Shown here: one piece after another, positions 3,448 through 5,605 of the stretch
Layout of the letters: every line of letters starts with the position of its first letter
Numbering within the stretch: position 1 is the stretch's first letter
Virus record (IMG/VR): IMGVR_UViG_2687453466_000005
Strand: one strand, 5' to 3'
Length of the DNA stretch: 14,169 bases
Origin: a virus
Taxonomy: Duplodnaviria > Heunggongvirae > Uroviricota > Caudoviricetes
The notes under the pieces: model-generated
What the model was told of the DNA's origin: nothing
Seen by the model: only the letters and a program-made list of their open reading frames with translations
Database searches by the model: none
Position numbers and translations under genes: made by a program

Positions 3448-3987
3448 ATGATGCCATTTGCTTGTTATTTCTTCATTTTCATAAACGTTGGTTTGGGAGA
3501 AGGCTCTGCATTACCTGTTGGTGTCCCGGTTCCGTGGCCTTCAGCCACTCCGCCAACAGGCTGGCTGAAATGCAATGGTGCCGCTTTTTCTGCTGAAGAA
3601 TACCCGGAACTGGCAAAGGCTTATCCGACAAATAAATTGCCTGATTTACGTGGTGAGTTTATTCGTGGCTGGGATGACGGGCGGGGGATTGATACAGGTC
3701 GCTCTATTTTAAGTATTCAGGGGTATGCAACGGAGGATCATGCTCATGGATTACCGTCAAGATCCACGATTGTGACTGATGCAACGATTAATTTCTATTT
3801 TGATGAAATATGGGTAAATAGTGGCACTGACATTATCAAAAGAGGAAACACAAACGATGCCGGATTACCAGCCCCGGATTATGGAACCTTTAAAACATAT
3901 AAACAATCAGTGGATGGTTTAGGTGCCGCAGCCTCAGAAACGCGTCCGCGTAATATTGCATTTAACTATATCGTGAGGGCAGCCTGA
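3448..3987 (+). CDS. stfE: Side tail fibre variable C-terminal cassette StfE, currently in the silent orientation (detached from the constant stfP 5' part)
   Basis: 179-aa ORF; peptide ...VGLGEGSALPVGVPVPWPSATPPTGWLKCNGA... is a typical phage tail-fibre C-terminal domain; the ORF begins just upstream of the crossover site, so its first codons are not a genuine N-terminus. Confidence 0.55.
   Translation: MMPFACYFFIFINVGLGEGSALPVGVPVPWPSATPPTGWLKCNGAAFSAEEYPELAKAYPTNKLPDLRGEFIRGWDDGRGIDTGRSILSIQGYATEDHAHGLPSRSTIVTDATINFYFDEIWVNSGTDIIKRGNTNDAGLPAPDYGTFKTYKQSVDGLGAAASETRPRNIAFNYIVRAA
3476..3501. repeat. Pin recombination site (pix/gix-like crossover site), proximal copy
   Basis: TTTTCATAAACGTTGGTTTGGGAGAA resembles hix/gix sites and is present in inverted orientation at 5303-5328, sharing the 12-nt block GGTTTGGGAGAA; both encode the peptide GLGEG in the tail-fibre frame. 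Confidence 0.6.
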
Positions 3988-4589
3988 TGCATAAAGCAAT
4001 ATTAAATAGTGACCTTATTGCAACAAAGGCAGGGGATGTTACCGTTTATAACTACGATGGTGAAACACGGGAATATATTTCCACTTCAAATGAATATCTT
4101 GCCGTTGGTGTCGGCATTCCGGCATGTTCCTGTTTAGATGCCCCTGGTACACATAAGGCTGGTTATGCAATCTGCCGTTCTGCAGATTTTAACTCATGGG
4201 AATATGTGCCAGACCATCGCGGTGAAACGGTCTATAGCACCAAAACTGGAGAATCAAAAGAAATCAAAGCTCCGGGTGATTACCCTGAAAATACAACCAC
4301 TATCGCCCCTTTATCTCCATACGATAAATGGGATGGTGAGAAATGGGTGACCGATACTGAAGCACAGCATAGCGCCGCAGTAGACGCGGCAGAAGCACAG
4401 CGCCAGTCACTGATTGATGCTGCAATGGCTTCCATTAGTCTGATTCAACTGAAATTGCAGGCCGGACGTAAACTGACGCAGGCAGAAACAACCAGACTTA
4501 ACGCTGTGCTGGATTACATTGACGCGGTGACGGCAACAGATACCAGCACCGCGCCGGATGTCATCTGGCCTGAACTGCCGGAGGCGTAG
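3987..4589 (+). CDS. tfaE: Tail fibre assembly protein TfaE
   Basis: 200-aa ORF overlapping the stfE stop (TGATG); C-terminus ...LDYIDAVTATDTSTAPDVIWPELPEA is the conserved Tfa motif. Confidence 0.8.
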   Translation: MHKAILNSDLIATKAGDVTVYNYDGETREYISTSNEYLAVGVGIPACSCLDAPGTHKAGYAICRSADFNSWEYVPDHRGETVYSTKTGESKEIKAPGDYPENTTTIAPLSPYDKWDGEKWVTDTEAQHSAAVDAAEAQRQSLIDAAMASISLIQLKLQAGRKLTQAETTRLNAVLDYIDAVTATDTSTAPDVIWPELPEA

Positions 4590-4974
4590 GCCATTCAATA
4601 TCTGGCGCACTGGATGTATCAACCAGTTCCAGTGCTTCCAGATAATCCAGCCACAAATTATATTGTTTCAGCTCATCTTCTTTAAGTCTTCCCAATGCAG
4701 CCTTACCCTGCCACTGTCTGCTATTGATAAAATCAGTTGCATCAGAGATAAGCATCTGCTTTTGAAAGTTCGCATCTGCGACTTCATCATCATGAGTACG
4801 GATAACCTCTTTAATAGAAGGAGGAAAAACAGAAAAATCGATCACGCCTCCTTCAGCTTGAGATTTTAATAATGACTGCCAGTGTTCTGCCGTTATTTCT
4901 TTAGAATCTGGCGGAATGACGCCACAGCCATCCATAAAAAAACCAACGGTATTTAAGCAACAGTATATTTTCAT
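4561..4974 (-). CDS. tfaP: Tail fibre assembly protein TfaP
   Basis: 137-aa product from the internal ATG (MKIYCCLNTVGFFMDGCGV...) placed 1 nt after the stfP stop; C-terminus ...LDYLEALELVDTSSAPDIEWP mirrors that of TfaE; the longer 210-aa ORF in the track overlaps stfP in another frame. Confidence 0.75.
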   Translation of the reverse strand: MKIYCCLNTVGFFMDGCGVIPPDSKEITAEHWQSLLKSQAEGGVIDFSVFPPSIKEVIRTHDDEVADANFQKQMLISDATDFINSRQWQGKAALGRLKEDELKQYNLWLDYLEALELVDTSSAPDIEWPTPPAVQAR

Positions 4975-4975
4975 C

Positions 4976-5605
4976 TTAATACCCAATAGCAATCCAGTTA
5001 TAGTAATAACTACCCGTTTGAGCTGCGCACCGTAATAAAAACGAAGTGGTTGTATATCCCCCCGTTGCCACTGCATTGATAGGTGCGCTGACATTGTCAT
5101 AATTTGCAACAACGGCAACACAGGCATTATTAAACGCAACCGGGAATACAACTGTATTTCCATCCCCCCCAGAGGCAGATGCTTTTGCGGCATTCCACCC
5201 CCACTGAATGATTACTGATTGCTCAATACCACCAATCATAACCGGTATAGCTATGAAACCGGTGCGTCCTAATGTAGCCGTTGCTGCATTGAGTTTTGCT
5301 CCTTCTCCCAAACCAAGGTTTTCGAGAGCCGTTTGCACAGTGCCATCCGATTTGATATCGCCAAACGGATTCTTGCGGCTTAACAGCAGCGCGCGAAGTG
5401 CGGTAAGTAACTGGTCGTGCCGCCCCTTCTCCAGGCTGGCACCGGATGCCTCCACCACGCTGCAAAGTTCCTCCTGCAACATGTCAAAGTAGTCATCATC
5501 CAGATCGGTGGCAGGCGTGCCGGTCTGGGGGTTACCACGGGTAAAACCGTTCTTACCCGCGCCGAACTTATCCTTCTGCGCGGTTTTCGTGTCTATACGA
5601 TGCAT
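4976..5605 (-). CDS. stfP: Side tail fibre protein StfP (constant N-terminal part fused to the currently expressed variable C-terminal part)
   Basis: 209-aa ORF spanning the distal pix site (codons ...[11 protein letters not shown]...); starts 4 nt after the ymfQ stop. Confidence 0.8.
5303..5328. repeat. Pin recombination site, distal copy (inverted relative to 3476-3501)
   Basis: Plus strand reads TTCTCCCAAACCAAGGTTTTCGAGAG, whose reverse complement shares GGTTTGGGAGAA with the proximal site; lies inside stfP at the constant/variable junction. Confidence 0.6.

Follow-up and report, generated by a model that had tools for sequence, protein, structure and literature searches.

The tail-fibre region of the 14,169-nt phage sequence analysed here (the window) was identified, with a probability of about 0.96, as the invertible P segment of the defective prophage e14 of Escherichia coli K-12, a two-state inversion switch of the Hin/Gin/Cin/Pin (Din) family. 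Positions 2800-6300 were 100% identical at the DNA level to E. coli K-12 (MG1655, C600, J53 and others), and pinE, tfaE, tfaP, ycfK and ymfQ are annotated in the identical K-12 DNA; the description of the region as a Pin-invertible tail-fibre segment in the initial annotation was thus borne out. The genes were ordered ymfQ, stfP (constant part and P tip), tfaP, tfaE, a promoterless stfE tip and pinE (Table 1), a layout of the phage Mu G segment type, and the window holds the reference (StfP/TfaP) state, one of the two. No evidence contradicting the identification as the e14 P segment was met.

The switch has been known since 1983-85, and the sequence is the K-12 reference of a textbook programmed DNA inversion, so the window adds nothing new to the system. 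Work by Mehta et al. in 2004 is also said to concern e14 and Pin of E. coli K-12. The e14 P segment and Pin were the subject of a paper by Plasterk & van de Putte (EMBO J 1985), here as cited in PMC4272514. From pinE to ymfQ the DNA was 100% identical to the published P segment and the switch showed no difference from it; the published length of 1797 bp and the repeats TTGGTTTGGGAGAAGG and CCTTCTCCCAAACCAA (PMC12529663) also matched the window.

Table 1. Features of the e14 P segment and its surroundings, in window coordinates
Feature	Position	Strand	Remarks and evidence
pinE, serine DNA invertase, 184 aa	2867..3421	-	Pfam, alignment with Gin, K-12 annotation WP_000905001.1
Putative recombinational enhancer, ~64 bp, pinE codons 8-29	3337..3400	.	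Low synonymous variation, geometry
stfE, silent alternative tip (E cassette), 179-aa ORF	3448..3987	+	Pfam Collar; annotated 'phage tail protein'
pinE-proximal crossover site	3476..3501	.	Core dinucleotide 3488-3489; repeat, template and alignment evidence
Invertible P segment	3488..5316	.	1829 bp core to core; 1797 bp between 16-bp repeats (literature figure)
tfaE, assembly chaperone for E tip, 200 aa	3987..4589	+	Pfam Caudo_TAP (E 8.7e-33), annotation
tfaP, assembly chaperone for P tip, 137 aa	4561..4974	-	Pfam Caudo_TAP (E 1.3e-19), annotation
stfP (ycfK), fibre gene in window orientation, 209 aa	4976..5605	-	Translation, Pfam Gp53-like_C
pinE-distal crossover site, inside stfP	5303..5328	.	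Core dinucleotide 5315-5316; repeat and template evidence
ymfQ, Mu gp48-like baseplate protein	5609..6193	-	Pfam Phage_Mu_Gp48 (E 1.3e-26), annotation

The two crossover sites were recognized as inverted-repeat arms (3483-3503 and 5301-5321) of 21 nt, 95% complementary and 1797 nt apart. Exactly two copies of the 14-mer TTCTCCCAAACCAA were present in the window, one on the minus strand (3488-3501) and one on the plus strand (5303-5316), compared with 0.14 occurrences expected by chance. The proximal 26-bp site read TTTTCATAAACG TT GGTTTGGGAGAA on the plus strand and the distal site TTCTCCCAAACC AA GGTTTTCGAGAG, so that, as in other Din-family systems, two inverted sites with imperfect 12-bp half-sites had an identical 2-bp core (AA/TT) in common. 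When the window was scanned with a template of two half-sites around 2 bp, in which 20 positions were scored, these sites reached 18/20 and 19/20, against 13 for the next best 26-mer and a maximum of 15 among 200 shuffles; no other high-scoring site was found in the 14 kb. The positions proposed for both sites in the initial annotation were exact to the base and their shared sequence was confirmed as TTCTCCCAAACCAA; translation also confirmed that both encode GLGEG in the fibre frame, the stfE ORF reading ...FINVGLGEGSALP... there. The proximal site was conserved across related loci and aligned with gix-type sites upstream of the invertase genes of SfMu, Kp4851-2 and YpM44.

In the window orientation the constant N-terminal part of stfP (5605-5317, minus strand) is joined to the P tip (5302-4976), as had been proposed. 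StfP residues 1-108 shared 92-94% identity with the short tail fibre of SfI, SfII, SfIV and SfV, which are functional phages, and residues 131-209 matched Pfam Gp53-like_C. The similarity of the constant part to these phage fibres led to rejection of the idea that the length of 209 aa results from truncation in a defective prophage. The tfaP gene is convergent with tfaE, the two overlapping by 29 bp. The stfE ORF contained a phage tail Collar domain (Pfam, E 1.4e-15) and its C-terminal part was ~60% identical to the HK97 stf tip. Its fibre frame runs from 3490 and is preceded by a 14-codon leader with an ATG at 3448/3451, outside the invertible segment, which is directly abutted by a Shine-Dalgarno-like AGGA; the earlier statement that stfE lacks an N-terminus therefore holds for the constant part of the fibre, which is absent, but not for an in-frame start and leader, which are present. 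As ymfQ lies directly upstream of the fibre gene, the expressed end of the segment is fixed. The baseplate J, portal and terminase genes further upstream are truncated pseudogenes, and 'expressing orientation' is consequently a statement about reading frames only.

PinE combines an N-terminal resolvase domain (Pfam Resolvase, E 2.4e-51) with a C-terminal helix-turn-helix (HTH_7, E 2.6e-14) and the catalytic Ser9, the features of a Din-family recombinase. It aligned with the Mu Gin structure 3uj3 over 181 residues (E 6.8e-93) and also with the Gin structure 4m6f. The pinE frame can also be read as a longer ORF of 196 aa from 3457, but the annotated gene begins at 3421. In alignments with the Hin DNA-binding domain (1hcr) and with Gin, the residue offset placed PinE Q150, R153 and L154, together with K46, K47 and R50, at residues of Hin in contact with Fis and the enhancer; the match of K46, K47 and R50 uses what we take to be the Hin catalytic-domain numbering. 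In Hin these contacts are made by Q151, R154, L155 and the basic residues 47, 48 and 51 (PMC3798978). A scan of 2700-6300 for sigma-70 promoters and terminators gave eight hits compared with 5.6 expected, none of them a convincing promoter for pinE or the fibre gene. Phage vB_EcoM-689R6 encodes a PinE that is 96% identical, in a partial record lacking the full segment and so unusable for comparison.

In-silico inversion of 3488-5316 produced an open fibre gene of 262 aa, and 116 complete genomes contained the simulated flipped sequence at 100% identity across 3501 bp, whereas 169 complete genomes carried the window orientation. Sublines of MG1655 occurred in both sets, again at 100% identity, and the flipped set further included DH1, DH5alpha, W3110-P, AB1157 and EMG2. 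The anticipated exchange, in which the StfE part and tfaE take the place of the C-terminal part of StfP and tfaP, was thus found both in the open flipped frame and in real genomes. Both orientations characteristic of a Din-family switch therefore exist, and the organization is that of the Mu G type, with a fixed N-terminus and two in-frame tips (209/262 aa) that lie in opposite orientations, each with its own chaperone. Read pairs and PCR have revealed both orientations together in clonal MGY cultures (PMC4272514). In wild-type BW25113 ~30% of copies were inverted by qPCR, each of PinE, PinQ and PinR inverted the segment, and pinE mutants were locked in the non-inverted state (PMC12529663).

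PinE dimers would bind the two 26-bp sites and, with Fis on an enhancer near the start of pinE (first ~100 bp), would assemble into a synaptic tetramer that cuts both sites at the central AA/TT via Ser9; rotation of one subunit pair by 180 degrees and religation would then leave the segment inverted. The result would be replacement of the 112-residue P tip and tfaP by the 165-residue E tip and tfaE after the fixed 97-residue N-terminal part, the reading frame being kept because the fibre gene itself contains the distal site and GLGEG is encoded at both sites.

Short inverted repeats are generally frequent, and 12 other weak pairs were present in the window, but the notion that the two sites arose by chance or through misassembly and have no recombination function has a negligible probability: the exact duplication of TTCTCCCAAACCAA and the scores of the full 26-bp sites lie far above expectation and shuffles, the sites are in frame in two fibre genes and adjoin an invertase gene, and hundreds of independent assemblies show both orientations. 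It is also very unlikely that the switch once inverted and has since been fixed in this copy because pinE, a site or the enhancer became defective. The single assembled sequence displays one orientation only, and decay is evident elsewhere in the window (an mcrA frameshift and a truncated intE), yet 2800-6300 showed no difference from K-12 copies known in both states, and published locking needs deletion of pinE, stfP or stfE (PMC12529663). The initial annotation had called the segment locked in the stfP/tfaP orientation; pinE was full length (184 aa, with Ser9 and both domains), both sites were intact with matching cores, and all were identical to copies that demonstrably invert. Given also the 116 flipped genomes against 169 and the two states seen in clonal cultures (PMC4272514, PMC12529663), locking is not supported; judged from its sequence, the switch appears not to be disabled, and nothing in it suggests locking.

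A different reading concerns the agent and purpose of the inversion. The segment could be flipped mainly in trans by PinQ and PinR, related invertases of the Qin and Rac prophages, and act as an inducible anti-phage device of the host, in which StfE2, the fusion read from the stfE leader in the flipped state, masks the receptors OmpF and FadL, instead of being a PinE-driven switch of phage host range. The fusion is reported to be functional, a defence role was reported in 2025, overproduction of PinQ gave 88% inversion compared with 49% for PinE, infection with T2 raised inversion from 30% to 81% and production of StfE2 blocked T2 adsorption (PMC12529663); the stfE leader ORF is present in the window and after inversion would read into the P tip. 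We nevertheless consider this unlikely as the main function. The locked, non-inverted pinE mutants imply that PinE is needed for basal switching, and the StfE2 effects were obtained by plasmid overproduction and docking models (PMC12529663). PinQ shares just 38% identity with PinE, the Shine-Dalgarno-like AGGA abuts the leader ATG, the segment is built as a Mu-type fibre switch, and functional Shigella phages have the constant part in common with it. The pinQ and pinR genes lie outside the window. For the preferred reading, a PinE-driven fibre switch, an effect of the two states on host range can be inferred for the ancestral phage only, because e14 is defective (baseplate J, portal and terminase pseudogenes) and makes no virions.

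The recombinational enhancer most likely lies at about 3337-3400 within pinE, as suggested by constraint on the coding sequence. Synonymous variation was computed over 70 unique pinE-like genes. The third-position diversity minimum of the whole gene fell in codons 9-13 (3397-3383; 0.022 compared with a gene mean of 0.345), a second cluster of low diversity was found in codons 28-33 (3340-3323), and codons 4-32 were less diverse than the downstream codons (one-sided Mann-Whitney, p 8e-4). Part of the low synonymous variation in codons 1-13 could stem from codon bias or from the demands of translation initiation. Candidate 15-bp Fis cores were located at 3400-3386 (GTATCAACAAATGAC) and 3351-3337 (GTGCAGGATGCGAGC), their centres being separated by 49 bp; 3339-3325 is an alternative distal candidate. 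The centre of the proximal candidate lies ~95 bp from the crossover centre, which fits the geometry of Hin, where a 65-bp enhancer is found about 100 bp from hix (PMC3798978). The range in which the enhancer had been expected, 3300-3420, thus holds the stretch of strongest DNA-level constraint (3400-3323). In the proposed search of that range for pairs of Fis sites, constraint pointed to candidate cores, but a scan of 3200-3560 with the Fis consensus (GNNYRWWWWWYRNNC) gave many candidates and did not discriminate between them. The best matches (10/11), at 3474-3460 and 3432-3418, were both upstream of the pinE ATG and outside the coding region, so the enhancer cannot be placed by consensus alone. 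A full-text literature search for strings of the enhancer sequence returned unrelated papers only. These two best matches fall in the conserved non-coding stretch 3422-3475 that separates the crossover site from the start of pinE. That this stretch is a second, undescribed Fis-dependent control element beside the putative intragenic enhancer, coupling transcription of pinE or the stfE-leader ORF to growth phase, seems improbable.

The order of elements is that of the Mu G segment and SfMu (a gp48-like gene, a constant part, a tip with its chaperone, an inverted chaperone and tip, and the invertase), and the SfMu order S, U, U', S', gin is the same as that of e14 here. In both Mu and e14 the proximal site lies upstream of the invertase ATG, the 26-bp sites are gix-like, and PinE and Gin align over 181 residues. 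In contrast, the fibre is shorter in e14 (209 or 262 aa) than SfMu S (488 aa), the segment measures 1.8 kb compared with about 3 kb for Mu G, and the tips are unrelated to those of Mu/SfMu, being of the Gp53-like_C and Collar/HK97-like types in a prophage that is defective. The Salmonella Hin/hix/Fis system likewise has a serine invertase and 26-bp sites, and its Fis/enhancer-contact residues are conserved in PinE; the putative e14 enhancer would fall in the 5' part of the pinE coding sequence, at ~95 bp from the closer site. The segment inverted by Hin carries a promoter and switches flagellins, whereas in e14 a coding cassette is inverted.

A shufflon is a system in which the tyrosine recombinase Rci acts on at least three crossover sites that delimit several segments. 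Like the e14 segment, the R64 shufflon varies the C-terminal end of an adhesin through site-specific inversion inside a coding sequence, but does so with a tyrosine recombinase, many sfx sites and multiple segments, whilst e14 has a serine invertase, two sites and one segment. A multi-site shufflon was rejected on the two sites only in 14 kb and the serine recombinase, and the term 'shufflon' used in the initial annotation is a misnomer.

Outside the switch, the window carried an mcrA frameshift, with a CCC>CC change that could be a homopolymer sequencing error, and a 241-bp deletion truncating intE, neither of which was found in 5,426 complete E. coli genomes; an exact search of metagenome and genome collections for the intE deletion junction gave no match. 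Comparison of annotations of both orientations revealed that annotation pipelines assign different 'genes' or pseudogenes depending on the state, and the practical value of the segment lies in annotation. A given strain can legitimately be assembled with the 1.8-kb segment in either orientation, and such differences should not be read as mutation or locking. With the flipped state reported in 2025 to protect against T2, the orientation of the segment is also relevant when the phage sensitivity of K-12 stocks is compared.

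Of the defective E. coli K-12 prophage e14, the window holds the right-hand part plus flanking chromosome (ycgX to lit), written as the reverse complement of MG1655 numbering. C600, J53, MG1655 sublines and numerous further derivatives of K-12 were 100 % identical to all 3501 bases of positions 2800–6300, and gene coordinates were taken from the RefSeq annotation of this identical DNA and converted to window positions. The e14 switch found here is the K-12 reference copy, which is already known, having been described in 1983–85 and revisited in 2014 and 2025. The 3' ends of the convergent genes tfaE and tfaP overlap by 29 bp (4561–4589), and the C-termini of TfaE and TfaP, coded on opposite strands, are alike (‘...PD(V/I)xWPxxP’).

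Genes, crossover sites and candidate enhancer elements of the e14 switch (window positions)
Feature	Position	Strand	Basis or sequence
pinE	2867–3421	−	RefSeq; Pfam Resolvase and HTH_7
stfE (‘phage tail protein’)	3451–3987	+	RefSeq; Pfam tail Collar domain
tfaE	3987–4589	+	RefSeq; Pfam Caudo_TAP
tfaP	4561–4974	−	RefSeq; Pfam Caudo_TAP
ycfK/stfP	4976–5605	−	RefSeq; Pfam Gp53-like_C on StfP tip
ymfQ	5609–6193	−	RefSeq; Pfam Mu Gp48
26 bp site	3476–3501		TTTTCATAAACG-TT-GGTTTGGGAGAA
26 bp site	5303–5328		TTCTCCCAAACC-AA-GGTTTTCGAGAG
Candidate 15 bp G...C core (putative Fis site)	3400–3386		
Candidate 15 bp G...C core (putative Fis site)	3351–3337		

The inverted repeat reported in the initial annotation was present at the stated location, with arms of 21 nt (3483–3503 and 5301–5321) that were 95 % complementary and had 1797 nt between them. 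The sequence TTCTCCCAAACCAA had exactly two matches in the window, one on each strand, against a chance expectation of 0.14. All 26-mers of the 14 kb window were scored against a half-site/2 bp/half-site template (maximum 20), as were 200 shuffles. The two sites scored 18/20 and 19/20, the next best 26-mer in the window scored 13 and shuffled sequence never scored more than 15; the window therefore has two sites and no more, the template scan having revealed no third crossover site in these 14 kb. The locus had been called a shufflon, a term for the multi-site system of R64 with its tyrosine recombinase Rci, whereas the e14 switch has a serine invertase acting on two sites, so that the name is unfit.

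Translation confirmed that, in the fibre frame, both sites code for GLGEG. Downstream of ymfQ on the minus strand, the fibre gene begins at 5605, and codons 1–97 are not part of the invertible segment. In the window orientation the reading frame passes from these constant codons across the site to the P tip of 112 residues, with tfaP next; after in silico inversion of 3488–5316, translation from the same start crossed GLGEG and continued into the E tip, producing an open 262 aa protein, and tfaE came next. The proposed exchange of one fibre tip and its chaperone gene for the other was thus upheld by the translations of both states. The architecture is the same as that of the Mu G segment, and e14 shares the SfMu order of tail fibre, assembly protein, inverted assembly protein, inverted fibre tip and Gin; the gix-type site of SfMu could be aligned with the one that precedes the invertase gene in e14. 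Four functional phages, SfI, SfII, SfIV and SfV, have a short tail fibre to which StfP residues 1–108 were 92–94 % identical, and the possibility that the short constant part is a product of decay was rejected on the strength of that match. The stf tip of HK97 showed ~60 % identity to the E tip. In the partial genome of phage vB_EcoM-689R6 (ON470584.1, 1–2400), a PinE 96 % identical to that of e14 is followed by an mcrA-like gene, and the fibre product matches the e14 constant part and the beginning of the E tip; the record is without tfa genes and a second tip, which suggests that the assembly was broken at the invertible segment.

The initial annotation also described the segment as locked in its present orientation, which was not supported. 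PinE is full length with the catalytic Ser9 present and aligned with the crystallized Mu Gin along 181 residues (E 6.8e-93), both crossover sites are intact with matching cores, and the entire switch is identical, base for base, to copies known to invert. Locking was tested directly by searching a synthetic flipped sequence against complete E. coli genomes. It was found at full length and 100 % identity in 116 genomes, compared with 169 for the window orientation; the flipped genomes included MG1655 sublines (for example NZ_CP032667.1), DH1, DH5alpha, W3110-P, AB1157, EMG2 and CV601. The read-pair and PCR checks called for in the initial annotation were already in the literature, Goldberg et al. 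having found by read-pair geometry and PCR that clonal MGY cultures hold both orientations (PMC4272514). Kirigo et al. reported ~30 % inverted in wild-type BW25113, inversion in 33 % of 562 database genomes, and locking only upon deletion of pinE, stfP or stfE (PMC12529663). Of the two possible states, the window just captures that of the MG1655 reference. In NZ_CP032667.1 (985–3106) the annotation pipeline labels both fibre pieces of the flipped state pseudogenes (‘missing N-terminus’, ‘missing C-terminus’) despite the open 262 aa ORF, whereas the opposite state is annotated with both as intact genes; how the locus is annotated thus depends on the state that was assembled.

A recombinational enhancer had been expected at roughly 3300–3420 in the initial annotation, where inspection by eye had not located Fis sites, and the range probably holds, on the evidence of synonymous constraint. 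Scanning with the degenerate Fis consensus did not place it, candidates being frequent and the top scores lying upstream of the ATG, and DNA-level constraint was therefore sought instead, in 80 loci with PinE-like genes (86–100 % protein identity), five more distant phage invertase loci and K-12 copies (70 unique gene sequences in total). Synonymous differences were at a minimum in the first ~35 codons of pinE, mean variation being 0.24 in codons 4–32 versus 0.36 in downstream codons (one-sided Mann–Whitney, p = 8e-4). Codons 9–13 (TCA ACA AAT GAC CAG; 3397–3383) formed the least variable five-codon window of the entire gene (third-position diversity 0.022; gene mean 0.345), with Ser encoded by TCA in 70/70 sequences and Thr by ACA in 69/70, and a second cluster of low variation covered codons 28–33 (3340–3323). 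Part of this constraint could be due to translation initiation or codon bias. The Hin enhancer is a 65 bp element with a Fis site at either end, ~100 bp from hixL (PMC3798978). Its spacing and span are matched by the two candidate cores, which lie 49 bp apart centre to centre and span 64 bp overall, the proximal one centred ~95 bp from the crossover centre. The two cores are probably homologous to the mapped Fis sites of Hin. Residues of Hin that contact Fis and enhancer DNA (Q151, R154, L155 and basic residues 47, 48 and 51; McLean et al., PMC3798978) are kept in PinE, aligning with Q150, R153, L154, K46, K47 and R50. An enhancer at about 3337–3400 is thus probable. The interval from the crossover site to the pinE start contains a non-coding block (3443–3459; AAATGGCATCATTCC on the pinE strand) that was strongly conserved in ~80 related loci. 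On the plus strand this block includes the ATGATG at which the stfE leader ORF begins, AGGA directly abutting the ATG, and it may represent the start of that leader or a promoter or operator of pinE.

Three further changes were seen, none of them within the switch. In mcrA (1928–2760, minus strand) a one-base deletion at about 2238 (GGAGCCCTC to GGAGCCTC) shifts the frame, leaving two ORFs (181 and 84 aa) in place of the 277 aa gene. The extra C was kept in 331/331 complete genomes with the stretch (best identity 99.5 %); the change could be a sequencing error, since it lies within a short C run, or a genuine laboratory-strain mutant allele. In intE (12300–13241, plus strand) a clean 241 bp deletion relative to MG1655 at 13229/13230 removes the last 62 codons (313 instead of 375 aa), including the ...TDRYHDD... 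region, and the intE–lit spacer. The lost region is presumably the site of the catalytic tyrosine, and a genuine deletion would be expected to leave this copy of e14 incapable of excision. The junction was not found in one piece among the complete E. coli genomes searched, nor in the metagenome and genome collections searched, and in its mcrA and intE deletions the window was unlike every complete E. coli genome searched. Upstream of iraM there is a G7 run (about 1019–1025) where MGY/MG1655 has G8; G7 is apparently common to DH5alpha, NEB 5-alpha, NEB Turbo and a few others, judging by one fewer gap over 1–2900.

The baseplate J, portal and terminase genes of e14 are truncated in the annotation of the identical DNA, and e14 in K-12 therefore cannot make virions; the ‘expressing orientation’ of the initial annotation accordingly means only that the gene is in frame. 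Earlier work, as cited in PMC12529663, established that Pin inverts the segment and is able to replace Gin and Hin, and PinQ and PinR of other cryptic prophages are reported to flip it as well (2025, PMC12529663). A present-day function has been reported for the flipped state, in which fusion of a 14-codon leader (3448–3489) with the P tip yields StfE2, a protein that blocks adsorption of T2, but the basis of this claim is overproduction and docking (PMC12529663). It is taken here as a competing explanation of what the switch does today, not of how it works. For the ancestral SfV/Mu-like phage, the architecture argues for a switch that would have alternated receptor specificity.
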